Both the position numbers and the translations under genes were made by a program. Positions 41,035 through 56,534 of a DNA stretch of 64,000 nucleotides are shown here, piece by piece. The first letter of the stretch is position 1. Each line of letters begins with the position of its first letter. The notes beneath the pieces are model-generated. The model ran no database searches. It had not been told where the DNA came from and saw only the letters and a list, made by a program, of their open reading frames with translations. This stretch comes from an uncultured Clostridia bacterium (GTDB taxonomy: Bacteria > Bacillota > Clostridia > TANB77 > CAG-508): positions 7,885-71,884 of the forward strand of contig CALXKE010000003.1 of NCBI GenBank assembly GCA_944388805.1, written 5' to 3'.

Positions 41035-43131
41035 TTATTCCTCCTCTTTAATAATGTTCTTGCTACCAATATATGTTGCTAAGAAATATAAACCATAGAT
41101 AACACCAATAATAACTGCTGTTGCTATTACAGAAGGTAATAAATCACTTGGAGAGGCTAATGCAGCAAGCATTGATAATATAAATTTAATTCCAAATATA
41201 GAATGTATAATCGCAAGAGCTAATGGTAACATGAAAAATATAAATATTTGTCTAAATAATGCTTGATTGATCATCTTTTCATCACAACCAATTTTTCTTA
41301 AAATTGTATATCTTTGTTTGTTATCAGAACTTTCTGTCAATTGTTTTAATGCTAAAATGGCAGAACTTGCAATTAAGAAGATAACTCCTAGATAAATGGC
41401 AATAAATATAATAATCGTTGCTAATCCTTTACTTGCTTCTATTAAACTAATTTTTGTCATGCCCTCTAGTTCTATACCTTTTTGTTCTAAGTTTTCCAAA
41501 AAGGTATTGTTATTTGTTTCTGATAATGTTTTTTCTATTTCTTCTTTTTCTTCATCAGTTTTAGCATTATAATTTGCTGCTAAAAATTCTTCTTCTTTCC
41601 ATTCTTCTTTTAATTCAAAATTATCTGGAACTAATATAATTCCTGTATTTACATGACTTGCAGACATTTCAATAAATCCACTCTTACATTCATTATATTT
41701 AGCATGTAAAGTTTTTCCTTCAATTTGTACTGTTGAATTTTGTTTTAATGCTTGATTTCTTAATTCTGTCATATTATCAAAATCGCAAAGGACAATATAT
41801 TCATCTTCGTTTAAGCTATATTGTTCTTGTCCATAAAGTTCTGCAATTTTATTATAATCAGATACTTTGATAATTTCTTCTGGTAAATCATACATAAGCA
41901 TTGAAAATTGTGCTTTTGCTTGTTCATAATAAGTTCCTAAACTATATTTTAAAGTCCATTCTGGAATTGTATAAACTGAAATTTCTACTATATCTTTTAA
42001 ATTATTCATATCATAACCATTGGTTTCTAATGTGTAACTAACTGGTTGTTTTGAATCTTCAATTTGCTCTTCTGTAGGATATATCATCTGACCTGTATAA
42101 GAATCTTCATAACTTTGTGGTAAATTTGCTGTTTTATATAAATTGACATCTACTGGTGTCATTTCTTGCAATTCTGAATCCATTGTTGTTTGGATAGATA
42201 AACTACTAGATAAGACACTTATGGTCATAAATAGCATTAAGCAAATTACAGACATACTAATAACGGTTGTATTAATCTTATTATTCAATTGTCTTAATAC
42301 AAACATATTGGTTCCTTTAAGATATATTTTTTTACTTGTTTGTATCATTCTTAGTATAAATCCTGATAAAGACCAAAATACGCCTATTGTTCCTACAATT
42401 CCCATTAAAATTGGTACTAACATTTTTTCTTCTGTATTTAATTCATAGATGCCACCTGTAACTATATAATATGCATATCCTAATAATCCTGCTGAAATTA
42501 AGAATACAATAATAGAAATGATTGGATTTTTTATTTTTACCTTTTCATTTTTTCTAACAGCTGTTAATAAATTAATTAATTTGTATCTTGAAATAGTAAG
42601 TGTATTAAATATCATAACTGCTAAATACATAACGGCAAAATAAATACATGTTTTAATACAAGCATCTTTTGAAAATACAAAGGTAAATTCACTCATATCT
42701 GCTTGAAAAAGTTTGGCTACTAGTATAGACATAAATTGTGAGCCAAATACACCTATAAAAATACCAACAATTAATGAAATGATTCCTACTAATATGGTTT
42801 CTATCAATATAATTTTGGATATTTGTCTTCTTCCCATTCCTAATGTCATATAAACACCAAATTCTCTTTTTCTTCTATTTACTAAGAAATTATTGGCATA
42901 TACAATTAAAAATCCAAGTACAATGGCAATAAATACAGATACCATTCCTAACATACTAATCATGAGTTTTATCATATCTCTTGTAGATTCAGATACTTCT
43001 AACATAGCTTGTTGACTATCTAAAGAGTTAAACATATAAAAGATTGCTACACCTAATACTAATGTTAAAAAATAAATGGCATAATCTTTAAAACTCTTTT
43101 TCATGTTTTTAACAGATAATTTAAATAACAT
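41035..43131 (-). CDS. BceB/YxdM-type ABC permease (FtsX family)
   Basis: KNMKKSFKDYAIYF, RRKREFGVYMTLGM, a large extracellular loop and YTILRKIG. Confidence 0.92.
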   Translation of the reverse strand: MLFKLSVKNMKKSFKDYAIYFLTLVLGVAIFYMFNSLDSQQAMLEVSESTRDMIKLMISMLGMVSVFIAIVLGFLIVYANNFLVNRRKREFGVYMTLGMGRRQISKIILIETILVGIISLIVGIFIGVFGSQFMSILVAKLFQADMSEFTFVFSKDACIKTCIYFAVMYLAVMIFNTLTISRYKLINLLTAVRKNEKVKIKNPIISIIVFLISAGLLGYAYYIVTGGIYELNTEEKMLVPILMGIVGTIGVFWSLSGFILRMIQTSKKIYLKGTNMFVLRQLNNKINTTVISMSVICLMLFMTISVLSSSLSIQTTMDSELQEMTPVDVNLYKTANLPQSYEDSYTGQMIYPTEEQIEDSKQPVSYTLETNGYDMNNLKDIVEISVYTIPEWTLKYSLGTYYEQAKAQFSMLMYDLPEEIIKVSDYNKIAELYGQEQYSLNEDEYIVLCDFDNMTELRNQALKQNSTVQIEGKTLHAKYNECKSGFIEMSASHVNTGIILVPDNFELKEEWKEEEFLAANYNAKTDEEKEEIEKTLSETNNNTFLENLEQKGIELEGMTKISLIEASKGLATIIIFIAIYLGVIFLIASSAILALKQLTESSDNKQRYTILRKIGCDEKMINQALFRQIFIFFMLPLALAIIHSIFGIKFILSMLAALASPSDLLPSVIATAVIIGVIYGLYFLATYIGSKNIIKEEE

Positions 43132-43888
43132 CGTTCAAATCACCTCCAAGAAGTGTTTGTACTTCAATTATCTTTTCAAAGAATTGTTTTCTAGTATCTT
43201 CTCCTTTTACTAGTTCATTAAAGATTTTTCCATCTTTAATGAAAATAATTCTATCTGCATAACTTGCTGTAAAGGCATCATGTGTAACCATTAAAATGGT
43301 TGCTCCTAGATTTTGATTTAAATGTTCAAATGTTTCCAATAATTGTCTTGCGGATTTACTATCTAATGCACCTGTTGGTTCATCTGCCAAGACCATTTTA
43401 GGATTTGTAATAATGGCCCTTGCTGATGCTACTCTTTGTTTTTGTCCTCCTGATATTTGATATGGATATTTATTTAAAATATTTGAAATTTCTAATTTTT
43501 CCGCTACTTCTTTTACTTTTTTATCAATTTCATGTGCATTTACTTTTTGAATAGTTAATGCCAAAGCTATATTTTCATAAGCAGTTAATGTATCTAATAA
43601 GTTAAAATCTTGAAATATAAATCCTAATTCCTCTCTTCTAAATTTGTTTAACTTATTTCCTTTTAGTTTGGTAATATCTTGATGATTGATGATAATGTTT
43701 CCTGCTGTTACTCTATCAATTGTTGAAATACAATTTAAAAGTGTTGTTTTTCCTGATCCTGATGCGCCCATGATTCCAACAAATTCTCCTTCTTCTACAT
43801 TAAAGCTAATTCCTGCAATGGCTTTTGTTAAATTTGATTTGTTTCCATAGTATTTTTCTATGTTTTTGACTTCTAATACATGACTCAT
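43121..43888 (-). CDS. BceA/YxdL-type ABC ATPase
   Basis: GASGSGKTT, FIFQDFNLLDTLT, ISGGQKQR, ADEPTGALDS and VTHDAFTAS. Confidence 0.95.
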   Translation of the reverse strand: MSHVLEVKNIEKYYGNKSNLTKAIAGISFNVEEGEFVGIMGASGSGKTTLLNCISTIDRVTAGNIIINHQDITKLKGNKLNKFRREELGFIFQDFNLLDTLTAYENIALALTIQKVNAHEIDKKVKEVAEKLEISNILNKYPYQISGGQKQRVASARAIITNPKMVLADEPTGALDSKSARQLLETFEHLNQNLGATILMVTHDAFTASYADRIIFIKDGKIFNELVKGEDTRKQFFEKIIEVQTLLGGDLNDVI

Positions 43889-43908
43889 TTAATTTCATTC
43901 CTTTCTTT

Positions 43909-44052
43909 AGGCACAAATTACTTGGAAAAGAATTGTGCTTTTGGCTAGGCAGACAAGTCCAAAATCAATGAGGCGTGCTTTTGCACGTTGATTTGATTTT
44001 GGATGAAGTCTAACAACGCCAAAACGCAATTATTTTTCAAGCTTGTAAACCT
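43909..44052 (+). ncRNA. Structured intergenic element, family C copy 1 (candidate ncRNA or ssDNA motif)
   Basis: Multi-stem hairpin whose internal loops are nearly identical to 55352-55476 while the stems covary. Confidence 0.65.
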
Positions 44053-44114
44053 CCATTTATCTTTTATTCTATATTTATTATACGGCTTATTCTTTTTTCT
44101 TTCCATTGTTTAAT

Positions 44115-44141
44115 CTTACATTTATCTTACATTTTTGTAAG
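44115..44141 (-). promoter_or_regulatory. BceR/GraR-type response-regulator binding site
   Basis: Palindrome CTTACA-TTTT-TGTAAG (44126-44141) plus a direct-repeat half site CTTACA (44115-44120); -10 TATAAT at 44082-44077 with no good -35. Confidence 0.7.
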
Positions 44142-44147
44142 GTAATT

Positions 44148-44281
44148 GTGCGTTAACGAAATCAAAGATTTCGACGCACACATGTGAAGACTGCTTCGCA
44201 GTACTTCACAAATATAGGAAGCCTACCTTGTTGTATACGAAAAAATCCACATAGGGTCAAGATAAAAGTCGATTTCCTATA
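44148..44281 (+). repeat. Cluster of GC-rich hairpins (mosaic element)
   Basis: GTGCGT..CGAAATC-AAA-GATTTCG-ACGCAC; TGTGAAG-ACTGC-TTC-GCAGT-A-CTTCACA; TATAGGAA...TTCCTATA. Confidence 0.7.
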
Positions 44282-44290
44282 CAATAAAGA

Positions 44291-44324
44291 AAAGGTAAGA
44301 TATTTTTTGTATCTTACCTTTAAA
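44291..44324. repeat. Terminator-like hairpin, left copy of a direct repeat flanking the TA cassette
   Basis: AAAGGTAAGATATTTTTTGTATCTTACCTTTAAA versus 45856-45890. Confidence 0.75.
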
Positions 44325-44347
44325 CAATCTATCTCTTTTTTATTAAT

Positions 44348-45439
44348 TTATTCTTTCCATTTATATCTTGTTTTTAAATTACTATATTTATCATATGGTA
44401 AAAGATTATCATTTTGTAATCTTCCTATTAACACAAATTCTTTTATCTTATTTTGTTGACTAAATTCTTTTATACTTTCTATTGAAAAGTCTTTTTTCTG
44501 TATATATTCCTCATATTTATCACTACTTATTAAAAAATCTTTGGCAAAATTATCTGCTATATCTTCTGCCTTCGTATTTTCAATATAATAATCCAATTTA
44601 TTTTCTTTGATATCATCATTTAATATATGTCCTATTTCATGAAATAATGTAAACCAAAAAATATCAGCATATGATTGTCTTATTGTCATACATAATATAA
44701 TTCTGTCATTTTTATTCTCTATAAATCCCTGTATAGGCGCTCCTTGAAAATTCTTTACTAACTCAAATATAATTCCACACTTCTTAAATATTTCCTTTAA
44801 TTTTTGTATCATCATATTAGGATTTTCTTCAAACATTAATTGTTTAATATCTTGTAAATAATTCTTTAATTTTTTACTATCATATGCATCTTCAACACTT
44901 TCTTTTTCAGCTATTAATTCACATACTCTTTGCCATGCATATAATACATATTCATCGACTTGTATATTTTTTGCAGCTCGATAAGCCACTTTTGTTATTA
45001 ATAGTTTTTCTATATTTAACAAATTATTTGTTTTACAAAGATTTCTAGCTATAATGACTTCTTCAGTAGTATTATTATATTTATTTATTAAATTTAATAA
45101 GATAGCATATTCTAAAATAGGTTCTATTCTTTTTGTAATCTCTATTTCTCTTTTATCAATATTATTTTTTTCTTGATATTCAATAATTTCTTTGTCATAT
45201 ATTGCTTGTAAATTTAACCAAAATGTAAATTTTACTCCAAAGACATATTCCAATGCCTTAGCAAATTTGGGTGAAATTCCTTTTTTCCCGTTTATCACTT
45301 CACTAATATGTTTGGCAGAAAAACCTGTTCTTTCTGCCAACTCTTCTTGATTCATATTATTTTCTTCTAATTTTTCTTTTATACTTATTCCTGGATGTAT
45401 AATAAAATCAAGGGATAAGCCAGTTATACTTGTCTCCAT
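44348..45439 (-). CDS. higA: HigA-family antitoxin (XRE HTH plus ImmA/IrrE-like HExxH domain)
   Basis: IHPGISIKE, QEELAERTG, FWLNLQAIYD and DIFWFTLFHEIGH. Confidence 0.88.
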   Translation of the reverse strand: METSITGLSLDFIIHPGISIKEKLEENNMNQEELAERTGFSAKHISEVINGKKGISPKFAKALEYVFGVKFTFWLNLQAIYDKEIIEYQEKNNIDKREIEITKRIEPILEYAILLNLINKYNNTTEEVIIARNLCKTNNLLNIEKLLITKVAYRAAKNIQVDEYVLYAWQRVCELIAEKESVEDAYDSKKLKNYLQDIKQLMFEENPNMMIQKLKEIFKKCGIIFELVKNFQGAPIQGFIENKNDRIILCMTIRQSYADIFWFTLFHEIGHILNDDIKENKLDYYIENTKAEDIADNFAKDFLISSDKYEEYIQKKDFSIESIKEFSQQNKIKEFVLIGRLQNDNLLPYDKYSNLKTRYKWKE

Positions 45440-45725
45440 GATAATCTATCACTCCTCTCACAATTATTTTTTGGTTACCCTTAGGCATTACTACCAATCT
45501 ATAATTTCCTGTAATCCCAACACCAAAATATCTTTTCAGGTTGCCTTTTAAAGGATGTGGTTTTCCAAAACCATATTTCATAAATTCTTGGAAATTTTCT
45601 GTTGCTTCTATTTGATTAAATCTTAATTTAACCATCTTAGCTAATTCTATGCCTATTATTTTTCTTAATTCTTCCATATTTGACATTTTCTTTTGTATCT
45701 CATGATTATGCCATTCTATTTCCAA
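45408..45725 (-). CDS. higB: HigB/RelE-family toxin
   Basis: GKPHPLKGNLKRYFGVGITGNYRLVV and IDYHG; TTG start after AGGAGG; lies upstream of the antitoxin. Confidence 0.8.
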   Translation of the reverse strand: MEIEWHNHEIQKKMSNMEELRKIIGIELAKMVKLRFNQIEATENFQEFMKYGFGKPHPLKGNLKRYFGVGITGNYRLVVMPKGNQKIIVRGVIDYHGDKYNWLIP

Positions 45726-45752
45726 GTTCTTTCCTCCTTTTGTATCTTGTTG

Positions 45753-45800
45753 TTACCTATTAGGTAATTAAATTCTATCATATACTTATATATATGTCAA
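45753..45800 (-). promoter_or_regulatory. TA promoter with palindromic operator
   Basis: TTGACA-N17-TAGAAT; palindrome TTACCTA-T-TAGGTAA at 45753-45767. Confidence 0.7.
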
Positions 45801-45855
45801 TGCTATAGAATTTTTTCTTTAAAAAATAAAACTATTTATGTTGTCCTTGACAAAA

Positions 45856-45890
45856 AAAGATAAGACATTCTTTATATCTTACCTTTTAAA
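45856..45890. repeat. Right copy of the direct repeat flanking the TA cassette
   Basis: AAAGATAAGACATTCTTTATATCTTACCTTTTAAA; 4 mismatches to 44291-44321. Confidence 0.75.
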
Positions 45891-45919
45891 TATATACAAT
45901 TTAAAAATCTATTTTTCAA

Positions 45920-46936
45920 CTACTTCAAATTTGTATAACTATTTTTAGGAAATATAATCCTTACTTCTGTTCCTTTATCTTTTTCTGAATTCAATTCTAT
46001 TCCAAGACTTAATTTATCACATAATTTTTTGCACAAGTATAAACCAATTCCAGTAGATTTTTGTCCTATTAATCTTCCATTTTCTCCTGTAAAACCTCTT
46101 TCAAATACTCTTGTGATTTCTCCTTTTTTTATTCCAATTCCATTATCTTGTATGTATAAAATGACTTTATCGTTTTTGGATTTTGCAAATATCTCTATTT
46201 TCTTATTTTCATCTTTAGAATACTTGATTGCATTTTGTATAATTTGGTTAATAATAAAAGTTGCCCATTTACTATCTGTATAAACTTCATGTTCTAAATC
46301 TTTTAATTCCAAAGCTACTTTTTCATTTAGTAATGTAGTTTTATTTTTTAATATAGCATTATTTACAATTTCTTTTAGATTGTTTTTGGTAATAATATAG
46401 TCTTTTTCAACGGCATTGCTTCTTGCATAAAATAAGGCTTGTTCTGTATAATTTTCTACCTTATCTAGTTCTTCATCTATACTTTTGGTTACTTCATTTT
46501 TATGGTTTTCAATAATCATTTTACTTGCCGCAATTGGTATTTTTACTTCATGGATCCATAATTCTATATATTCTTTATAATCTTCCTGAATACGTTTATA
46601 GTAATTTACATTTTCAAGCATAGACTTTCCTGCATCTAGCATGACTTCTTTTAAAATTTTGCCTTCTGTAAAATTAGCGTTTTTTATAATTTCAGAAATC
46701 AAATACTTTTCATGTAATTCTTCCATATTATTTTTTAATTGATTATAAAAATGTTGTTTTCTTTTATATTCAACAAATATGGAAATGGATACAACGATAA
46801 TGATAATAGCAGCTATGTAAATTTGTGCAATAATTCCGATTTGATAAGCCAATAATAATATTTCTATACTAATTAAGGCTAATAGAACACTTACAATTAA
46901 CAATACTTTATCTTTTATAAAATCACTAAATTTCAT
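45920..46936 (-). CDS. BceS/GraS-type intramembrane-sensing histidine kinase
   Basis: Two adjacent TM helices; WIHEVKIPI, QALFYAR, NAIKYS, DNGIGI, FERGFTG and STGIGLYL. Confidence 0.93.
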   Translation of the reverse strand: MKFSDFIKDKVLLIVSVLLALISIEILLLAYQIGIIAQIYIAAIIIIVVSISIFVEYKRKQHFYNQLKNNMEELHEKYLISEIIKNANFTEGKILKEVMLDAGKSMLENVNYYKRIQEDYKEYIELWIHEVKIPIAASKMIIENHKNEVTKSIDEELDKVENYTEQALFYARSNAVEKDYIITKNNLKEIVNNAILKNKTTLLNEKVALELKDLEHEVYTDSKWATFIINQIIQNAIKYSKDENKKIEIFAKSKNDKVILYIQDNGIGIKKGEITRVFERGFTGENGRLIGQKSTGIGLYLCKKLCDKLSLGIELNSEKDKGTEVRIIFPKNSYTNLK

Positions 46937-47604
46937 TTTAATATATACCCCTGTCCTCTTTTGGTTTCTATTCTATCATGTAATCCTAATTCTTCTAGTT
47001 TTGTTCTTAGTCTTTTTATATTGACATTTAATGTATTATCATCAATAAATTCTTCACTTTCCCATAAATAATCCATGATTTCATCTCTTGATACCACTTC
47101 ATTTTTATGAGTACTTAAATAGTATAAAATAGTATATTCATTTTTTGTTAAGCCCATTTTCTGATTATCTTTTTCTATAGTTCTTTCTGCTATATTTAAT
47201 ACAAAATCATGACAGTCAATTTTTTCTGGATTTCTTCCTGCATTTTGATTTCTTTTTAATAAACCATTTATTTTTGCAAGTAATATTTGTATATTATATG
47301 GTTTTGTAACATATTGGTCTGCTCCATAATTTAGACTCATTAATTCATCAATTTCATTATCTCTACTTGTTACCATAATAATTGGCACATTAGATACTTT
47401 TCTTACTTCTTTGCAGACAAATTCTCCATCTGTATATGGTAAATTAATATCTAGTAATACCAAATCTGCATTTTCATCTAATATATCTTGTATTGTATTA
47501 TCAAAATTTTCTAATCCTTTTGCTTCAAATCCATTTTTATTTAAAAATGTTTCTAATTCTTGTCTTAGTTTTTTATCATCTTCAACAATTAATATTTTAC
47601 TCAC
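46933..47604 (-). CDS. BceR/GraR-type OmpR-family response regulator
   Basis: ILIVEDD, LLDINLPYTDG, GADQYVTKP, DDNTLNVNIKRLR and TKRGQGY; GTG start. Confidence 0.95.
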   Translation of the reverse strand: MSKILIVEDDKKLRQELETFLNKNGFEAKGLENFDNTIQDILDENADLVLLDINLPYTDGEFVCKEVRKVSNVPIIMVTSRDNEIDELMSLNYGADQYVTKPYNIQILLAKINGLLKRNQNAGRNPEKIDCHDFVLNIAERTIEKDNQKMGLTKNEYTILYYLSTHKNEVVSRDEIMDYLWESEEFIDDNTLNVNIKRLRTKLEELGLHDRIETKRGQGYILK

Positions 47605-47731
47605 TTTTTAATGATTCCTTTCTCAATATTATATTTACTAAATAGAAAATCAATTTTTCTATTTAGCAGAATACATTAAACTTTTCAATCTTTTTCTTTT
47701 TTCATTTCATTGTTATTATACGAATTTTTAT

Positions 47732-49318
47732 TTATTTCGTCAAATGTTTTAATTTTATGAGTTCATTAAATTCTTCCTCAAGCTCTTTTTTTCTTTTCTC
47801 ATCTTTTGTCATTGCTAATTCTGAAGTAATTTGTGATATCTTAAAATCTAATAATAGTTTATCATTTTCATTTTTACTTTGTTGTTTTTTACTTCTTTCT
47901 TTTTCATATTGTAGATAAGAAGAATAATTTCCTTCATATTCTATAATTTTATGGTTTTTTATAACTAAAATATCTGTTGCAATATGATCAATAAATGTTT
48001 TATCATGTGTAACAAATAAAATCGTTCCATTATATTCTTTTAACAATTCTTCTAAACTTTCAATGGATTCTATATCCAAGAAATTAGTAGGCTCATCTAA
48101 TATCAGTAAATTATTGTCTGATACCAATATCTTAGCAATCGATACTTTTACTCTTTCTCCACCACTTAAATCTTTTATGTTTTTTTCTAAGTCTTTATCT
48201 TTGAATAACAAATTTGCTAATATATTTTTTACAATCATTTCTGATTGATTCGTATCTTGCATGACATTTTGTAATACATTTTTACTAAAATCTAAGTTTG
48301 AAAAATCCTGCGAAAAATATCCTATTTTTATATTCGGATTTACTCTTATATGACAATTTCCATTTATGATTTGATTGATCAGTGTTGTCTTTCCTGCTCC
48401 ATTTTCTCCTATTAAAGCTGTTTTTCGATTGGTTTTGATAACACAACTTGCATGTTCAAATAATTGTTTTTCTCCTAATTGGATATTTAAATTTTCAATA
48501 CGGATTGCTATTTTATTTTTTGTATTTTCTTTTGTTTGATATTTCATATATATTTTTTGATTGTTTTGTGGTTTTTCTTTTACTTCTAGTTTTTCTAATC
48601 TAGTTTGCAAGGCATTTGTGTGTCCTTCCAATTTTTCTCTTATGTTTTCAACACCTCTTTTATGCAATCTTGCTTCAGAATTTCCCATTCTTTTGGGCGT
48701 TTTTCGAATTTCTTTTGCTGTATTTTTTGAAACATGAATCGCTTTTTCTAATCTTTGTTTTTCATTTATATATTGTATATATTCCAATTCTTTTCTTTTC
48801 GTTTCAGCCTCTTTTTGTAACTTATATTTTGAATAATTTCCTTCATATCTTTTTACTTTTCCATCTTTTATTTCTATAATGGCTGAACAAATTTCATCTA
48901 ATAGACTTCTATCATGAGATATGATTAATATTGTTCCTTGATATTTTTTTAATTCTTTTTCAATATGACTAATCCCATTCCTATCTAAATTGCTTGACGG
49001 TTCATCTAGTAATAGGATGCCATTTTGATGTAATACTTTTTGATGAAATGCTTCTTTCTTCTTCTCTCCGCCGCTTAAACTCTTATTTTCATAATTAATT
49101 TCTTCAAATTGCTCCATATATATGATATTTTGCTTACGAATAATTTCTCCTGTATCTGGCTCTATTCTTCCAGCTATGATGTTCAATAAAGTAGTTTTTC
49201 CTGATCCGTTTTGTCCTACTATTCCTATTTTTTCATTTTCATATACTTTTAAATCTTCAATTTCTAATATCTTTCTATCACCATAATATTTTGATATATT
49301 TTTTAATTCTAATACCAT
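47732..49318 (-). CDS. ABC-F ribosomal protection-like protein (Msr/Vga/CplR-like)
   Basis: Two ATPase domains with no TM segment (GQNGSGKTT, LSGGE; GENGAGKTT, LSGGERVK); linker PKRMGNSEARLH; start ATG 49318. Confidence 0.85.
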   Translation of the reverse strand: MVLELKNISKYYGDRKILEIEDLKVYENEKIGIVGQNGSGKTTLLNIIAGRIEPDTGEIIRKQNIIYMEQFEEINYENKSLSGGEKKKEAFHQKVLHQNGILLLDEPSSNLDRNGISHIEKELKKYQGTILIISHDRSLLDEICSAIIEIKDGKVKRYEGNYSKYKLQKEAETKRKELEYIQYINEKQRLEKAIHVSKNTAKEIRKTPKRMGNSEARLHKRGVENIREKLEGHTNALQTRLEKLEVKEKPQNNQKIYMKYQTKENTKNKIAIRIENLNIQLGEKQLFEHASCVIKTNRKTALIGENGAGKTTLINQIINGNCHIRVNPNIKIGYFSQDFSNLDFSKNVLQNVMQDTNQSEMIVKNILANLLFKDKDLEKNIKDLSGGERVKVSIAKILVSDNNLLILDEPTNFLDIESIESLEELLKEYNGTILFVTHDKTFIDHIATDILVIKNHKIIEYEGNYSSYLQYEKERSKKQQSKNENDKLLLDFKISQITSELAMTKDEKRKKELEEEFNELIKLKHLTK

Positions 49319-49320
49319 AA

Positions 49321-49379
49321 AAACTCCTCCTTTAATCATATTAAAGAAGGAGTTTATTATCTATTATTTTAAATCTCAT
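49321..49379 (-). promoter_or_regulatory. Translational attenuator: SD-sequestering hairpin plus leader ORF MRFKIIDNKLLL
   Basis: Minus strand AAACTCCTTCTTTAA-TATGA-TTAAAGGAGGAGTTT buries the SD; uORF 49379-49341 covers the 5' arm. Confidence 0.6.
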
Positions 49380-49673
49380 CTCATTTTCGCATTTATATTC
49401 TTATATATGTTCACTTATTTAATAGTTTTGTACATAAATTTTAAAATTTGCATTATTAATAAACCATTCTAAAATATGATTACCTCTTATTTTATTTGTT
49501 GTAGTTTATTAATAATAATCATTTTCCCACCATTTTAACCTTTCTTTTTAATTCCTTTTTATTTTACCATATGTTTATTTATTTTTCAATAAAAACTTTC
49601 CTTATATTTAAGTAATAAAATAGCGTACCATATGATACACTATTTTGTTATTAAATTTATTATTGAATAACTA

Positions 49674-50330
49674 CTAATCTGTTGAATCTCCCAAATAATA
49701 TATTTTTTTCTTGAAAATAAACTTGTTTGTTTTTTTCCAATAGAATAATAAACAACCAATAACAAAAGCAATTGCTAATACGGTTAATGTAATATGAGAA
49801 TATTGATCAAAAATTGCAAGCATATTTGCCCAATTTTCTCCTACGATATTTCCAATTGTTAATAGAACTGTATTCCAAACAGCAGATCCTGATATAGTAT
49901 ACATTAAAAATTTCCCCATAGACATTTCACTCATTCCTGCTGGTATAGAAATTAAACTTCTAACAATAGGAATAAATCTGCAGAAAAACACCGTTTTGTT
50001 TCCTTTTTCATCAAACCACTTATCTGCTTTATCAATGTCTTCTGTTTTTAATCTAAGTATTTTTCCCACTTTTCCTGAAACTAATTTTTTTAGTCTTTCT
50101 TTATTTAATATTCTTCCTACATAATATAGCACAATGGCACCAACTAATGATCCCAAAGTTGCTGATATAATCATGATAACAATATTTAATCCTGTATAAG
50201 TAGTCATAAATCCACCAAATAATAAAACTGCTTCTGACGGAATTGGTGGAAAAATATTTTCTACCGCTATTAATAAAAATACACCTAGATATCCAAATTG
50301 TTCCATTATAGATAACATGATTTCTTGCAT
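49674..50330 (-). CDS. DedA-family protein
   Basis: ENIFPPIPSE and FFCRFIPIVRSLISIPAG. Confidence 0.92.
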   Translation of the reverse strand: MQEIMLSIMEQFGYLGVFLLIAVENIFPPIPSEAVLLFGGFMTTYTGLNIVIMIISATLGSLVGAIVLYYVGRILNKERLKKLVSGKVGKILRLKTEDIDKADKWFDEKGNKTVFFCRFIPIVRSLISIPAGMSEMSMGKFLMYTISGSAVWNTVLLTIGNIVGENWANMLAIFDQYSHITLTVLAIAFVIGCLLFYWKKTNKFIFKKKIYYLGDSTD

Positions 50331-50392
50331 ATGTTTTCTCCTTTTTATTCATAACATGAATATACTATGATTATATTCCATTCGTTAAATTT

Positions 50393-51697
50393 TTAACTAT
50401 TTTTTTGTTTTTCTGGTCTATTAATACTATATCGTATATCTTCATCATTATATTCTTCTGGCTTCAAACCTACTTTATCTCTCATATAGTCTAACAATAA
50501 TATGATTCCAATTGTTGTAACACATCCTATGATAATAAATGTATTTGCAGTTGTGGTTATCGCTAATAATCCAGAGGAGATTAATGATAAAATAGCTGTT
50601 GCTAAATTGGCTGTTAAATATCTTAAAGCAGATATTTTAGGTCGTATGCTTCTATTGGTAAAATTATTTAAATATCTTGTAATTAGTCCTACATATGGTC
50701 CTTTAATAGCATATTGAATTGCAAATAAGACTACAATTAGGATTAAAGATGACCTTGATAATTGGTCTTGTCCTATAAATCCTATAACAATACATGACAT
50801 TACCATAGGAATTCCTAACCATGCTAATGTTTTATTTCCAAAATTTTCTTGTATTTTTTCTGTATTTCTAGTAGAAATTGCCGCAATAATTTGTAATATA
50901 GCAAATATAACGCCAAAATACTGTTCAGGAACATGTATTTCTTCTAATATACTACTTCTTAAATTAACAATTGCCGTTATAGTTCCCATTAACAATGCAT
51001 TAAACATAATTAATGAACGAATCCTTTTTGACTTTAAGAAATACCTAAAAGACGTTTTTAATTGTACCATATATTCTGTAAACTTAATTGGTTTTACCTT
51101 GTTTTGTGCAATTGCTGTATGCCTGAATTTAAAAGATAAAATCGTTGCAAGTGTACAACATATAAAACATAAAACCATAGGAATATATCCATTGATAACA
51201 AATGTAAAACCTGCTGTTGTAGAAGCAATGGCTTCCAATATATAGAAATAAGATGTAGATTTCCCATCTATTTTTGAGAATATCTTTCCTCTTCTATATC
51301 CTTTTGGTAAAGAATCATATAATATATTTGCTTCACATATTCCTTTTATAGAATATCCTAGTGCATATATAAATTGAATAATTAGTAATTCATAATATTC
51401 CTGCATAAATATCATAGATAATATGCTTAATGTATATAATACATTTCCAACAATTAATGCATTTTTCTTTCCCACTCTATCTACTAATCTTGTTACTGGT
51501 ATCTGCCATAAAGTATTGGATAATGTATAAAAGGCGTCAGAAAATAATACTTGTGCTGCTGAAAATCCCTTTACTTGTGTCAGAAATAAAAATATAATTG
51601 GGTAATAAAATAATAGGTCCCATGATACCATTTTGTATAATGGGAATAACCTAACATTTTTCTTTTTATGTCTGATTAATTTTTCCTTTGTACTCAA
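50393..51697 (-). CDS. MFS transporter
   Basis: About 12 TM helices; motif A-like RLVDRVGKKNAL; ILYDSL. Confidence 0.85.
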   Translation of the reverse strand: MSTKEKLIRHKKKNVRLFPLYKMVSWDLLFYYPIIFLFLTQVKGFSAAQVLFSDAFYTLSNTLWQIPVTRLVDRVGKKNALIVGNVLYTLSILSMIFMQEYYELLIIQFIYALGYSIKGICEANILYDSLPKGYRRGKIFSKIDGKSTSYFYILEAIASTTAGFTFVINGYIPMVLCFICCTLATILSFKFRHTAIAQNKVKPIKFTEYMVQLKTSFRYFLKSKRIRSLIMFNALLMGTITAIVNLRSSILEEIHVPEQYFGVIFAILQIIAAISTRNTEKIQENFGNKTLAWLGIPMVMSCIVIGFIGQDQLSRSSLILIVVLFAIQYAIKGPYVGLITRYLNNFTNRSIRPKISALRYLTANLATAILSLISSGLLAITTTANTFIIIGCVTTIGIILLLDYMRDKVGLKPEEYNDEDIRYSINRPEKQKNS

Positions 51698-51712
51698 CTG
51701 TTTCTCCTCTTT

Positions 51713-52657
51713 TTAATCATTCATTTCTTTTTCTCCATTATACTCATTTACCAAATATAATGGTCTATCTTTACTTTCATTAAATATTCTTCCTAAATAT
51801 TCTCCTATAATTCCAAATAATAATATTTGTACGCCAGAGAAAAATAGAATCAATAATATAATTGCTTGATATGCTTGGATCATTGTACTTGTTATAATAC
51901 ATTTTGCAATTACATATACAAAATATACAAATAAAATAATAAATGTTGGTATACTAATATATGTTGATATTCTAAGTGGTGATGTCGTAAATGATGTAAT
52001 TCCATCTATTGCTAAATCTATTAGCTTTTTATAATTCCATTTTGTTTGCCCTGCAATTCTTGGGTCTCTATCATATAGTACTTCTTTTTTCTTGTATCCT
52101 ATCCAACTAAACATACTTTTTGAATTTCTTTGAGATTCTCTCATTTTTCTCAAGGCATTCACACATCTTCTGTCTAATAATCTAAAATCTCCTGTGTCTT
52201 GTTGAATTGGTACATTTGTTAAATGTTGCAAAACTCTATAATACATTTTTGATGTAAATTTCTTTAGCCAAGTTTCTCCTTTTCTTGAACTTCTTTTGGC
52301 ATAAACGTCATCATATCCTTCTTCCCAGTATTTTACCAATTCAGGAATCAATTCTGGTGGATCTTGTAAATCGGCATCCATAAAAATAACACAATCTCCT
52401 GTTGCATAATCTAATCCTGCAATCATAGCAATTTCTTTTCCAAAGTTTCTAGAAAAATCAACATAGCATATTCTATTATCTTTTTCTCTATATTCTTTTA
52501 TTAAATTAATGGTATTATCTTTACTTCCATCATTTACAAATAAAATTTCAAATTCATAATGCTCCATAGAACTCATTAATTTTTCTAATCTTTCATATAA
52601 ATGTGGTAATGATTCTTCTTCATTATATGCTGGTATAATTATGGTTATTTTTTTCAT
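51713..52657 (-). CDS. GT2 polyprenol-phosphate glycosyltransferase (GtrB/CsbB-like)
   Basis: IIPAYNEEE, VNDGSKD, FSRNFGKE, DADLQDPPE and TGDFRLLDR; two C-terminal TM helices. Confidence 0.93.
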   Translation of the reverse strand: MKKITIIIPAYNEEESLPHLYERLEKLMSSMEHYEFEILFVNDGSKDNTINLIKEYREKDNRICYVDFSRNFGKEIAMIAGLDYATGDCVIFMDADLQDPPELIPELVKYWEEGYDDVYAKRSSRKGETWLKKFTSKMYYRVLQHLTNVPIQQDTGDFRLLDRRCVNALRKMRESQRNSKSMFSWIGYKKKEVLYDRDPRIAGQTKWNYKKLIDLAIDGITSFTTSPLRISTYISIPTFIILFVYFVYVIAKCIITSTMIQAYQAIILLILFFSGVQILLFGIIGEYLGRIFNESKDRPLYLVNEYNGEKEMND

Positions 52658-52689
52658 TTTATTCTCATTCCTTTCTTAAGGTCAAAATT

Positions 52690-52715
52690 GGTTAAAAAAG
52701 AATTATTTCTCAACC
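52690..52715 (+). repeat. Minimal or empty version of the family C element
   Basis: GGTTAAAAAAGAATTATTTCTCAACC resembles the outer arms of 55352-55476 joined at a single AATT, in the same SD context. Confidence 0.55.
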
Positions 52716-52726
52716 CTTTCACTTTT

Positions 52727-53152
52727 CTACCCATTTACTTCTTTCTTTGTTTTAAATGCAAAAAATTTACTTATAAAAAAGTTTAGAATGACAACAATCA
52801 CTGTAATGGTTACTTTTGTGATGACATATTCTACATGTAAGACTGTATAAAGTAAAAATACACCTGCCATTTCTAATACCATCGTAAACAATCTACCTAA
52901 TATAAATTTAAAAAATTCTGTCCATTTTTCTTTTGCAGTTTCCGCTGTAGAATTAAATACCATTTTACGATTGGTAAAATAAGCAAACAAAATAGAAATA
53001 ATAATTCCTATTGTACTTGCTATATTTCCTTCAACCTGAAATGCTTTTACTAATATTGTTGAAACTCCTATATTAATGAGTGTTGTTAATACACCAAATA
53101 TTAAATATGATATGGTTTCTCTTGTACATAATTTTTTTATAATTTTTTCCAT
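52727..53152 (-). CDS. GtrA-family flippase-like protein
   Basis: YLIFGVLTTLIN, FAYFTNRKMVF and VVILNFFISKFFAF. Confidence 0.92.
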   Translation of the reverse strand: MEKIIKKLCTRETISYLIFGVLTTLINIGVSTILVKAFQVEGNIASTIGIIISILFAYFTNRKMVFNSTAETAKEKWTEFFKFILGRLFTMVLEMAGVFLLYTVLHVEYVITKVTITVIVVILNFFISKFFAFKTKKEVNG

Positions 53153-53297
53153 TTTTCTTCACTTTCTTATTATTTTCTTTATTAAATTTAAAGTTCATTC
53201 CATATTTTTTTATTTGTATCTTCTTTATATTTTTCATTATCATTCGTTAAAATCGTTACTATTATATCAATAAATATATTTCTTGTAAAGCATATGA

Positions 53298-54207
53298 TTA
53301 TTGCTTATTCTTAAAATAATAACTTTTTATCATTCCTGGAATGAATAATAATATATATAATATTTTGTTTTCTATTCCTTTTATGTTTCCTATGTTATAT
53401 TGTTTTGTTAAATAACCAAATAAAATATAATGTTTCATAACATATAACCTCTTTTTTAGAGAAATTCCTCGCATATCCTGTTGTTCTAAAATCTCTTTGA
53501 AATATGCAAAATGTCCATATGGATTTTCTTTAAAAACTTTTCTAATATTTTTGGTATATCCATCTTCTTTGTAATCGCATATCATAAGTGGTTTATTGAT
53601 ACATTTCATTTTATATTTCAAATCCATTTCATGATACATCCTGGCTTCTGTTGAAAACTTTTCATGATTTTCAATTTTATACTGATACTGTTTTCGGATA
53701 TCTGCAAAAAATACAATTGCTTTTTCTCCAGTTTCTCCGCTCTTTAAAATATAAATCAAACATGGTGGTCTCTTCTTTTCGAAATAAGTTTCCAATATTA
53801 TTTCCGTTTAAATCATATTTTAAAAAGCACAAACCATATAAATCATTTCTCTCTCTTGTTTCATAATAAGCTTGTAAAATATCATAAAATGCATTATCTG
53901 AAAATATATCATCAGAGTCACACTCTACAATTAAATCTCCATTAGCATATTGAACAACATTGTTAATAGCTGACATTTTTCCTTGATTTTTTTGTTTATG
54001 ATATTGTATTTCTATCTTTTTTTCATTTATGTACTGATGGATTACTTCTTCTGTATTATCTGTTGAACCATCATCTATAACAAGCCATTGTACTTGTACA
54101 CTTTGCCTTACTTCATCATTTAGTTCTAAGTTTTTCACAATGCTGTTGTATAAATTACCAAGCATATTGGCCCTATTATATGTTGGTGTAATAATAGATA
54201 ATTTCAT
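53298..54207 (-). pseudogene. GT2 glycosyltransferase split by a +1 frameshift (pseudogene, sequencing error or programmed frameshift)
   Basis: N-half has ITPTYNRA, DDGSTD and CDSDD. Skipping base 53739 in TTT AAA GAG C GGA GAA joins FDLYFKE to GETGEKAIVF, giving a 302-aa protein. Confidence 0.8.
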
Positions 54208-54209
54208 AA

Positions 54210-55316
54210 TTATTCTTCCTTTAATAATTTTTCTAATTTTTTGATGATATGCTGATTATCATAAGTTTGTTTCTTCTCATCAAAAGTTTTTATATTATTT
54301 TCAATGATATATTTTAATTTATTATAAATTTCATGTTCATCGTTTTCTACAATCACTGTATTTCTATAATTTTCAACAGCTTCTCTTGCTGCTGTATTGG
54401 TAATAATAATTGGCTTATTCAAAATTTTTGCTTCTTCTAGCACCATACCATATCCTTCAAATTTAGAAAGTAAGCAAAAAATATCTGCTTGTTTCATATA
54501 TGGATATGGATTTTCTTTGGCACCTAATAAGAAAAATGTTTCTTGTAAATGTTCGTCTTTTATTAATTTTTCCAATTTTTCTTTTTCTGGTCCATCACCA
54601 ATAATATAAAATTTATTCATATAATGATTTGCAATTAATTCTCTATGAATACGAATTAATCTATCAATTCCTTTTTGTTCTACTAATCTTGCTACTGTCA
54701 AGAAATTGATTTGGTGATTATCAAAAGAAAAGTCTATTTTTTCTTCTGCTTTTTCTATTACTTTCTGTGCATTTATATAATTATAGATAACCTCTTCTGT
54801 TGGTTTCATATTCGGATATCGTATGTCAAACACTTCTTGATTATCTTTACTAACAAATATCAGTTTTTGATATTTGTTATAAATCCTTCTATCTATGAGT
54901 AATTTTAGTTTTGCTTTTAATCCATTTCCATATACTTTTGAAATATCATTATGAATCCAAGCTATTTTCTTTGTATTTTTATTTTTTGTGCTAAATAGCC
55001 TTGTAATTGGTCCTTCTAAGAAAGCGATTTCTATATCATAATTACCTTGAATATATTTTTTATAATATTGTTTTTGGAAGCATAAAATCTTTAATGGTAT
55101 TTTTATTTTTTCAAACTGACTAAATCTCTTGTATGGTTTGTCAAATATTCTTTTTACTTTTATCTTATCATTTAAACTTTTTTCTAACTCACCTTTTCCA
55201 TAAATCGTAAATATCGTAATGTCAAATGTATCACATAAACGATTTGCCATATCAACCAATACTCTCTCTGCTCCGCCTAACGTTAAACTCGTTATTCCCA
55301 ATATTATCTTTTTCAT
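54210..55316 (-). CDS. GT4-family glycosyltransferase
   Basis: GGAERVL, AWIHND, VARLVEQKG, NPYPYM and SKFEGYGMVLEEA. Confidence 0.92.
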   Translation of the reverse strand: MKKIILGITSLTLGGAERVLVDMANRLCDTFDITIFTIYGKGELEKSLNDKIKVKRIFDKPYKRFSQFEKIKIPLKILCFQKQYYKKYIQGNYDIEIAFLEGPITRLFSTKNKNTKKIAWIHNDISKVYGNGLKAKLKLLIDRRIYNKYQKLIFVSKDNQEVFDIRYPNMKPTEEVIYNYINAQKVIEKAEEKIDFSFDNHQINFLTVARLVEQKGIDRLIRIHRELIANHYMNKFYIIGDGPEKEKLEKLIKDEHLQETFFLLGAKENPYPYMKQADIFCLLSKFEGYGMVLEEAKILNKPIIITNTAAREAVENYRNTVIVENDEHEIYNKLKYIIENNIKTFDEKKQTYDNQHIIKKLEKLLKEE

Positions 55317-55351
55317 ATTTTCATGTATTCCTTTCTTAATGCTTCAAACAT

Positions 55352-55476
55352 GGTTAGGAAAGAATTAAATTTTGGCTAGGAAAACAAGTTTGAAATTTAT
55401 GAGACGTACTTATTTGTACGTTGATTAAATTTCAAATGAAGTTTGACAACGCCAAAATTCTAATTATTTTCTAACC
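55352..55476 (+). ncRNA. Structured intergenic element, family C copy 2
   Basis: Same loops as 43921-44041 (TAGG/ACAAC, AAG/TGAA, TGAG/TGAT) with compensatory stem changes. Confidence 0.65.
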
Positions 55477-56462
55477 TAAACAAATTTTTCTTGTAACTTA
55501 TCTCTTATAAATTTAATTCTCGCTAAACTTGTATAAATTTTTAATGTAATTGTATTTACAGATCTCATATATAAATTCTTTAACCCTTTTTCCTTTAAAT
55601 AGGTATTTTCCTTCCAATTTGTAAATTGTGTATTCAACGATTTCCATGCCATATGAATCATTTCTTTTCTTTCTTTTTTATTTTCAATCATTACCATTCT
55701 AAGCATAGAACTACATAAAATATATCTTGCATAAGTGTATTCTATTTCTTCTTTGTATTCTTCAAACAAATTATTTGCTTTGTAATATTCAATAACATGT
55801 CCTAAAACATCAATAATTTCTTTTGTTCTTGTATTTTGTACATTTGAGATAGAGTCTTCTCTTTGTACATAATGAATGAATGGTTTTTGAACAATTCCAT
55901 AATCATGTATCAATGGCAATAGTTTATAGAAAAACTCTACATCTTCATATCGATATCCTTTGGGAAATTCTAAATGGTTATCTTGTACAATTTCTCTTTT
56001 AATTAGTTTATTCCATGCAACAACTCTTGTATGGATAAACATTTCTTTTTTATTACTATATTGTTTTCCTTTGCTTTCTAATGTCTTATCTGGATATTCC
56101 CATAGAAAATTACATTCTACATAATCCAAATCTTCTTTTTTTGCTTTATTATACATTTCTTCATACATATTGGTTTCAACATAATCATCAGAATCTAAAA
56201 AAGCAATATATTCTCCCTTGGCATGTGGAATTGCATAATTTCTAGCATCTGATAACCCACCATTTTCTTTTTCCAAATAGATAATTTTATTTGGATATTT
56301 TTCTACAAATTGTTTGGCAATCTCCTCCGTCCCATCTTGACTTCCATCATTCACAAGCAAGATTTCAATATCTTCTAATGTTTGATTTACTAAAGATTGC
56401 AAACATTTTTCTATGTAATTTTCTACATTATAAAATGGAACAATGATACTAACCTTTATCAT
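55476..56462 (-). CDS. GT2-family glycosyltransferase
   Basis: SIIVPFYNVE, NDGSQD, NGGLSDARN, FLDSDD, WNKL and YED. Confidence 0.93.
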   Translation of the reverse strand: MIKVSIIVPFYNVENYIEKCLQSLVNQTLEDIEILLVNDGSQDGTEEIAKQFVEKYPNKIIYLEKENGGLSDARNYAIPHAKGEYIAFLDSDDYVETNMYEEMYNKAKKEDLDYVECNFLWEYPDKTLESKGKQYSNKKEMFIHTRVVAWNKLIKREIVQDNHLEFPKGYRYEDVEFFYKLLPLIHDYGIVQKPFIHYVQREDSISNVQNTRTKEIIDVLGHVIEYYKANNLFEEYKEEIEYTYARYILCSSMLRMVMIENKKERKEMIHMAWKSLNTQFTNWKENTYLKEKGLKNLYMRSVNTITLKIYTSLARIKFIRDKLQEKFV

Positions 56463-56483
56463 GATTTAACGCATTCCTTTCTA

Positions 56484-56534
56484 AGGCACAAGTACTGAAA
56501 TCTGACGACGCCAAAATTGTATTTATTTTCCAAG
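56484..56534 (+). repeat. Internally deleted family C element
   Basis: Left arm AGGCACAAGTACTGAAA and right arm TCTGACGACGCCAAAATTGTATTTATTTTCCAAG resemble the ends of 43909-44041. Confidence 0.65.

Follow-up and report, generated by a model that had tools for sequence, protein, structure and literature searches.

The 64,000-nucleotide window analyzed here, part of contig CALXKE010000003.1 from an uncultured Clostridia bacterium, contains two full copies of a hairpin repeat termed family C, located at 43921–44041 (copy 1) and 55352–55476 (copy 2). Family C is a mobile, fast-decaying repeat, in which a unit of hairpin and tail inserts beside start codons, and the fold and loops are conserved on one strand. 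On balance, we favor the interpretation, with confidence somewhat better than even, that uncultured gut Clostridia harbor in family C a mobile but non-autonomous DNA repeat, the fold of which is kept for single-strand recognition or copying. A reading of the window from its sequence alone (hereafter, the sequence-only reading) had framed the two copies as a candidate structured RNA or ssDNA motif. The framing as a two-copy motif, and a cis-regulatory role with it, is not supported; the element is a multi-copy mobile repeat whose presence at a given site varies between close relatives, whose interior is rapidly deleted, and whose tail carries a ribosome-binding site (RBS).

The sequences of both copies, with their five stem pairs and three loop pairs, are all present as quoted in the sequence-only reading. 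The two copies share 84% column identity, the differences being mostly in the stems, and each strand of both is predicted to fold into one unbranched rod, 121 nt long in copy 1 and 125 nt in copy 2. Their scores against a covariance model (CM) of the family are 116.9 and 118.7 bits, respectively. With RNA parameters, the folding energy of the plus strand is −56.6 kcal/mol for copy 1 (z −7.8) and −48.8 kcal/mol for copy 2 (z −9.7), as compared with −45.4 and −38.2 kcal/mol for the minus strand, and the plus strand is therefore ahead by approximately 11 kcal/mol in both copies. None of the 200 shuffles folded as well as the copies in any of the four strand cases (z −7.7 to −9.7). With DNA parameters, the plus strand remains ahead by 3–5 kcal/mol (−31.5 and −28.1 versus −26.4 and −25.1). 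The gene contexts are also as had been described. Copy 1 resides 32 nt upstream of an ABC_tran ATPase gene (43121–43888, minus strand), with its fold strand antisense to the ATPase operon. The ATPase gene is followed by that of an FtsX permease and preceded by those of an OmpR-type regulator and a kinase, which makes the module Bce-like. Copy 2 is flanked by two glycosyltransferase genes, GT2 (55476–56462) and GT1 (54210–55316), and its last base lies within the GT2 stop codon.

Further copies were searched for with BLAST, nhmmer, and the CM, which was built from 12 copies. The window's own genome (denoted as G000; 2.02 Mb, 71 contigs, 28% G+C) contains at least 21 full copies, comprising 12 intact copies, three with a nested non-coding insert of about 50 nt, and six of a sister family, dispersed over at least 15 contigs. 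It also holds half copies and mini-hairpin remnants, and two of the remnants are in the window. Among the 36 genomes sampled from the genus, 23 gave CM matches (E ≤ 0.001), numbering 1 to 26 per genome, and 13 gave none. In the other families of the order, 4 of 24 genomes contained matches (1/7, 0/7, 0/4, and 3/6). A pattern scan of species-representative genomes yielded 120 stretches, 80 of which were kept as loci, and the CM confirmed 31 copies in 28 of these loci. The titles of all 28 name metagenome-assembled genomes from animal or human guts, assigned to uncultured Clostridia, Clostridium, or Eubacteriales, and no CM-confirmed locus among the 80 came from another taxon. Identity between non-orthologous copies of a single genome reaches 98%, and a derived variant with a nested insert is present at two loci. 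These observations indicate that copies are still being made.

The fold is conserved throughout the family. In an alignment of 81 copies (80 distinct) from about 30 genomes, standard pairs account for 93.8% of the 3423 pair cells, as compared with 74.0% for shuffled partners (reached in 0 of 500 shuffles) and 35–44% for slid partners, and double changes affecting both sides occur in 39 of the 43 pairs (621 cells); because the CM alignment was fitted to structure and strand and the copies are related, these counts are somewhat inflated and represent upper bounds. The proposal of selection on the fold with real covariation is borne out in the 80 distinct copies. The claim of many compensatory changes holds in part: slow covariation between subfamilies is present, and is mixed with copy-specific complementary termini that change far faster, as described below. 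The internal loops, which appeared near-invariant between the two window copies, keep their core bases in the larger alignment. A36 is present in 80/80 copies, G38 in 77/80, and A178 in 80/80, and the corresponding values are 74/80 for G62, 68/80 for A63, 67/79 for G154, and 79/79 for A155. Conservation is weaker on the AAG side of the second loop, where the first base is A in 36 and G in 28 of the 80 copies. The tandem G-A beside the apical hairpin is family-wide and recurs in the sister family. With covariation exceeding that of the controls and with one-strand wobble pairing, family C has the properties of a structured single-strand element, either RNA or single-stranded DNA (ssDNA). For the first loop, a K-turn was considered and dropped, since the order of the bulge and the G-A pairs does not fit.

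The wobble pairs identify the strand on which the pairing is kept. In the paired columns of the fold strand, G-U/U-G combinations occupy 193 cells and A-C/C-A combinations occupy 33. Six columns alternate among A-U, G-U, and G-C, as compensatory change through wobble intermediates would give. The modeled strand folds better in all 21 G000 copies and, in a set of 42 copies spanning about 25 genomes, in 39, with a mean difference of 12 kcal/mol. In the window, this is the plus strand, antisense to the operons, on which the sequence-only reading had placed the tandem G-A pairs. The fold strand is the C-rich strand in 20 of the 21 G000 copies (G-C skew about −0.2). It is the opposite strand that is locally enriched in G and T. 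The wobble pattern runs counter to this enrichment, and we therefore take the one-strand bias as evidence of selection on the fold rather than of mutation bias. Evolution in place was followed in five orthologous full pairs among the 15 × 17 copies of two sister genomes, and the 0–5 substitutions in each are too few for a strand test.

The copies also occupy characteristic positions relative to genes. The gene whose stop adjoins the hairpin runs antisense to the fold strand in 69 of 75 cases, as does the gene that starts on the tail side in 69 of 80; both genes do so in 61 of 81. In 50 of 69 copies, the base of the hairpin is between −27 and +9 nt from a stop codon, and in 44 of 69 a start codon is at most 50 nt away. 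The neighboring genes include rpoD after dnaG, grpE after hrcA, nusA, rpoB, and the genes for RecD2 and RsmD- and RluA-type enzymes, as well as those for DUF362 proteins, ABC transporters, glycosyltransferases, sigma factors, and serine recombinases. They share no common theme, and a shared ligand or regulon is therefore unlikely, as had been argued from the two window copies. Around the copies, 80–100% of the genes are on the leading strand, so that replication and transcription are inseparable as causes of the orientation. A diverged copy at L011:2979–3108 (C19:35697–35826 of G000) is sense-oriented and precedes the 5′ region of the 16S rRNA by about 10 nt; besides G000, five other genomes of the genus have this copy, and at least four lack it. 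This copy shows that the orientation rule is tied to protein-coding contexts, which fits a need to present a Shine-Dalgarno sequence. An outward sigma-70-like promoter in the 3′ arm was rejected, since its −10 element is poor and transcription from it would enter the upstream gene in antisense.

Comparisons with close relatives revealed that the hairpin and tail arrive together. Four sites (the copy 1 site, C12b, dnaG/rpoD, and ABC/FtsX) have empty counterparts in close relatives, with 84–95% flank identity. The empty sites contain neither the tail nor the hairpin and retain the native Shine-Dalgarno sequence beside the ATG. In the filled sites, the native Shine-Dalgarno sequence is pushed upstream of the hairpin, and a new one within the 18–32-nt tail serves the gene. 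At the copy 1 site of G070, the flanks of which are 93% identical, GGAGG is located 9 nt from the ATG with nothing between them. In the window, the tail (43889–43920, plus-strand coordinates) separates the ATPase start codon from the hairpin by 32 nt and carries on the gene strand the Shine-Dalgarno sequence now used, and the displaced native GGAGG is found at 44050–44054 on the minus strand, upstream of the hairpin. In G080, the tail is kept at this site and the hairpin has collapsed. The dnaG/rpoD site is empty in G070, G080, and G068, with a remnant in G061. The ABC/FtsX site is empty in G070 and in the more diverged G063, with remnants in G068 and G061. The C12b site is empty in G070 and G061 and full in G068, and in G080 a remnant stands beside the still-present ancestral spacer. 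At the C12a site, the last codon and stop of the upstream gene have been replaced by the unit. Copies of family C alter the 5′ untranslated regions and last codons of neighboring genes. The tail of copy 2 (55317–55351, plus strand) provides the Shine-Dalgarno sequence of the GT1 gene on the minus strand and resembles the tails of copy 1 and others; it may likewise be part of an inserted unit at its site. Across the family, the strict tail motif occurs in 9 of 81 copies, as compared with 7 of 1383 ordinary gene starts. Sequestration of the Shine-Dalgarno sequence by the 3′ arm was also considered and dropped, since it is not conserved between the copies. At 44042–44070 on the minus strand, the displaced native Shine-Dalgarno sequence is followed by an ATG and an 8-codon frame running into the hairpin, possibly an accidental upstream mini-frame.

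The inserted units decay rapidly by internal deletion. At the site orthologous to that of copy 2, G070 and G080 have remnants left by symmetric internal deletion; in G068, 12 nt remain, and in G031 the genes are separated by a spacer of 25 nt. Such remnants were observed at seven sites, namely those of copy 1, copy 2, C12a, C12b, and C2b, and two between the sister genomes G006 and G030. In each, the interior has been lost between short direct repeats facing each other across the stem. Deletion between direct repeats across a stem is a known signature of slippage over a DNA hairpin. The window itself contains two decayed copies on the plus strand. One, at 52658–52715, consists of a tail and a 26-nt mini hairpin that retains the outer stem only, upstream of a gene at 51713–52657, and is identical in form to remnants found at sites orthologous to those of full copies. 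The other, at 56463–56534, consists of a tail and the 3′ arm only (nhmmer model positions 89–129), upstream of the GT2 gene.

The stem ends evolve differently from the rest of the hairpin. In 78 copy pairs with interiors at least 92% identical, the outer five base pairs show 0.20 differences per site, in comparison with 0.054 for the interior. The outer pairs therefore change approximately 3.7 times faster, in a concerted manner in both arms and with the pairing kept, and orthologous copies also differ by paired outer-stem changes. Slow compensatory evolution cannot yield such concerted terminal changes, and these fast-changing complementary termini indicate a mechanism, not just selection. 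The stem end is either made anew at each copying event or restored by repair of one arm on the template of the other.

These features suggest a model in which a unit composed of a rod hairpin of about 125 nt and a tail of 18–32 nt, on the 5′ side of the folding strand, would land in the few bases that separate the Shine-Dalgarno sequence of a gene from the start codon, or else where the preceding gene ends. The tail would supply a replacement Shine-Dalgarno sequence on the gene strand, so that insertions could be tolerated even inside essential operons, and the fixed orientation would arise because the tail must present this sequence to the downstream gene. A folded single strand of one polarity would be recognized or copied. 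Whether it acts as RNA or as ssDNA, the latter is probably the case, and the single-stranded intermediate would most likely be ssDNA handled by a structure-specific enzyme. A more ambitious version, which we put forward only tentatively and consider rather doubtful, is that family C is the substrate of a new single-strand mobility system in Firmicutes that would recognize the shape and a few fixed purines, in the manner of attC sites, insert a translation-initiation cassette, and re-make the last 2–3 base pairs of the stem at each copying. Such a system could possibly depend on a new structure-specific enzyme. Alternatively, it could be an enzyme-free process of replication template switching between translation-initiation regions, which is conceivable because these regions all share the microhomology of Shine-Dalgarno sequence and ATG.

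Several observations weigh against family C as a mobile repeat copied through a folded single strand. The fold strand is the leading-strand template in 20 of the 21 G000 copies, which is the strand least exposed as ssDNA, and the pair counts, as noted, are upper bounds. The Shine-Dalgarno tail is demonstrated at four sites and in one subfamily, not family-wide. No clear target-site duplication was seen in the four filled/empty comparisons, the junctions of which allow at most a 2–4-nt repeat or microhomology. Five orthologous copy pairs are 92–100% identical, as compared with 89–99% for their mostly coding flanks, and a benefit of family C to the host remains compatible with this flank-like conservation. 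No mobilizing enzyme was found, although reverse transcriptases, IS110, TnpB, and integron integrases were not searched for. Y1_Tnp (PF01797) is not tied to family C: of the element-positive genomes, 18 of 23 have it, and of the element-negative ones, 10 of 13; this test concerned co-occurrence only, and flanking of Y1 genes by family C was not examined. The gene for a small GIY-YIG protein of about 100 residues, which G000 carries, is likewise not tied to the element (13/23 element-positive versus 9/13 element-negative genomes). It is absent from the element-richest genomes (G006, G030, G009, and G010), and a CM match is near only one of its 12 loci, that match being the rRNA-leader copy. In addition, no gene-carrying or autonomous form was found in G000 or in nine further pattern-positive loci without a CM match. 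A large serine recombinase gene lies directly beside a copy at 5 of 81 loci (L158:8105–9873, L155:5512–7259, L154:5055–6863, L156:5484–6619, and L157:7216–8346), two of which are the same prophage-like island. In G000 and G019, this gene is at the end of a phage-like gene row, and in G040, which belongs to another family, the adjoining copy is the single copy of the genome. The recombinase may mark a transfer vehicle rather than the mobilizing enzyme.

Three other explanations were considered for the same data. Family C could be a host-used mRNA element, in which the gene-strand hairpin and Shine-Dalgarno sequence form an intercistronic module that was recruited or spread as useful, for example as a processing site for RNase III or another enzyme, an mRNA stabilizer, or a device joining a stop codon to the next start. 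Copies do occur in operons that need differential expression (dnaG/rpoD, hrcA/grpE, upstream of nusA, and after rpoB), their positions between stop and start codons (50/69 and 44/69, as above) suit such a role, the gene-strand RNA still folds with z of about −8, and orthologous copies are as conserved as the coding flanks. However, the pairing is kept on the opposite strand, and the 193 wobble cells become A-C mismatches on the gene strand, where the conserved loops are pyrimidine-rich mismatches. Moreover, close relatives manage with empty sites and normal Shine-Dalgarno sequences, copies are lost quickly, and 13 of 36 genus genomes have no match at all. We consider this explanation unlikely. 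Family C could also be a family of antisense or small RNA genes, in which the transcribed plus strand, with its tandem G-A loops and a 5′ tail of anti-Shine-Dalgarno type, folds and either binds a protein or acts on the overlapping mRNA or on others. Both the wobble bias and the purine-rich loops suit an RNA folded from that strand, the tail has complementarity to Shine-Dalgarno regions, and in the sense-oriented 16S rRNA leader copy, kept in five other genomes, this strand is certainly transcribed. Against this explanation, the unit has no promoter, and any promoter would have to reside inside each unrelated downstream gene; no terminator-like U run follows the hairpin in copies 1 and 2; and the copy number varies from 0 to 26 among close relatives. 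The RNA contigs on the region gave no strand or end information: two chicken-gut metatranscriptome runs contained 0.16 and 0.07 of the sampled words, and their contigs are fragmented. A recurrent joint in these contigs (55443 to 56508) derives from a look-alike copy elsewhere with the same 12 extra letters and is no evidence either way. The expression data could not decide between the explanations, and we regard an RNA gene as distinctly improbable.

The remaining explanation is that family C is a neutral palindrome, in which the complementary changes reflect DNA mechanics, such as template switching or repair in an extruded hairpin, and the fold is not under selection. A mechanism of arm-to-arm copying is proposed in a preprint (10.1101/2021.04.15.439925). 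The accelerated and concerted changes of the outer stem, including the paired changes between orthologous copies, are what such copying would leave behind, and the symmetric deletions show that the hairpin forms in DNA. Yet arm-to-arm copying, which has no strand preference, cannot give 193 G-U against 33 A-C cells, and it would erase asymmetric internal loops that are nevertheless fixed in 80 copies. Arm-to-arm copying is thus real in family C and explains neither the wobble bias nor the fixed asymmetric loops, and we assign only a small probability to a palindrome free of selection.

Family C does not correspond to a known RNA family, and the Rfam search that the sequence-only reading had called for matched none. 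With Rfam 15 at gathering scores, no matches were obtained in the 64-kb window or in three further copy-bearing loci. Permissive searches with copies 1 and 2 remained at chance level, with a best score of 22.3 bits against a cut-off of 55 (E values of 2–7). The copies do not have the properties of a riboswitch or cis-regulatory leader, as the neighboring genes are unrelated and the fold strand is mostly antisense to them. Full-text searches of the literature found no description of family C. We conclude that it is a hitherto undescribed member of the mobile hairpin repeats, and that its mechanism is possibly new.

The sister family is represented in G000 by six copies (C10:15938–16070, C1:52524–52648, C57:2134–2265, C55:2557–2687, C13:45622–45755, and C52:5407–5524), one of which is in tandem with a family C copy. 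The two families have the apical hairpin and tandem G-A loop in common. The strand asymmetry of the sister family, which was not part of the model building, reaches 20–35 kcal/mol (e.g., −62 versus −29). Nested mini hairpins of about 45 nt occur within three family C copies at two different positions (L007:3030–3078, the same position in L009, and L008:3080–3125). The nested inserts, the only inserts seen in family C, are non-coding and 45–60 nt long, show compensatory changes between versions, and fold better on the strand of the host copy; in G000, no such mini hairpin turned up apart from those within family C copies. Downstream of the gene for a Sir2-type deacetylase, at L279:3–314 (contig C59), G000 carries the small GIY-YIG gene. 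The final 25 or so codons of this gene have matches elsewhere in the genome, and a repeat seems to supply its 3′ end. The intergenic region of copy 1 additionally contains a different repeat of about 145 nt (44148–44293), with 90–95% identical copies on four other G000 contigs (C7, C15, C10, and C2) and further copies in G070, G061, G080, G068, and G010.

Small hairpin repeats are common, and the movement of most of them is unexplained. Family C offers unusually clean handles on this problem: filled, empty, and decayed alleles at the same sites, a one-strand fold kept against mutational bias, and termini that change in concert. Its fixed tandem G-A loops resemble a recognition surface, and its RBS-replacing tail lets it live in the operons of rpoD, grpE, nusA, and rpoB. 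A mechanism that proved to be new could yield programmable insertion of translation-initiation cassettes. For genome annotation, copies of family C should not be taken for riboswitches or small RNA genes.

Among known systems, family C resembles the REP/REPIN repeats, which RAYT (Y1 HUH) transposases mobilize, and the palindrome-associated elements derived from IS200/IS605 in being a gene-less intergenic hairpin repeat of variable copy number, with a folded, strand-specific single strand and with neither the terminal inverted repeats of cut-and-paste elements nor a clear target duplication. It differs from REP/REPIN, which are 20–40-nt palindromes or doublets, in forming a single 125-nt rod with three conserved internal loops and in having a Shine-Dalgarno tail, and the presence of Y1_Tnp does not track it. 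In IS608, the orientation rule favors the lagging-strand template. The fold strand of family C is instead on the leading-strand template. The bacterial miniature inverted-repeat transposable elements (MITEs) Correia/CREE of Neisseria, ERIC of enterobacteria, and RUP and BOX of pneumococcus are, like family C, long imperfect palindromes of 100–150 bp in transcribed intergenic regions with a patchy distribution. In family C, no clear TA or other duplication was seen, and no related insertion sequence was found; an autonomous insertion sequence with the same ends, the expected companion of a classical MITE, was not found in G000 or the nine further loci, in which no arm pair brackets a gene. Its strong orientation bias, one-strand wobble bias, own RBS, and insertion between the Shine-Dalgarno sequence and the ATG further distinguish it from MITEs.

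Strand-specific hairpin repeats near genes are also known from the Ssn nucleases, for which Chenal et al. (2025; PMC11893778) describe hundreds of NTS/SRM hairpins around genes, bound only as ssDNA by a GIY-YIG nuclease of about 94 residues. Family C is similar in being a strand-specific hairpin repeat around genes. It differs from the SRM hairpins, which are about 30 nt long and have their own consensus, and it neither co-occurs with nor flanks the small GIY-YIG gene of the genus. The mycobacterial interspersed repetitive units (MIRUs) reside within operons, in one orientation relative to transcription, and preserve the flanking translation. Family C shares the intra-operon location, the orientation, and the preservation of translation, whereas MIRUs are tandem 40–100-bp units with overlapping small reading frames and without a hairpin carrying a portable Shine-Dalgarno sequence. 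Finally, the integron attC sites range from 57 to 141 nt, a size comparable to that of family C. A core-like heptamer was noticed in one arm only of copies 1 and 2, and attC core sites were for this reason dropped as an interpretation. Family C is dispersed rather than arrayed, its unit is gene-less, and the R″/R′ core sites are not in place; intI was not searched for. As in attC, however, structure is conserved over sequence, the bases left unpaired are fixed, proper folding is a property of the strand antisense to the genes only, and the element is positioned at gene ends.

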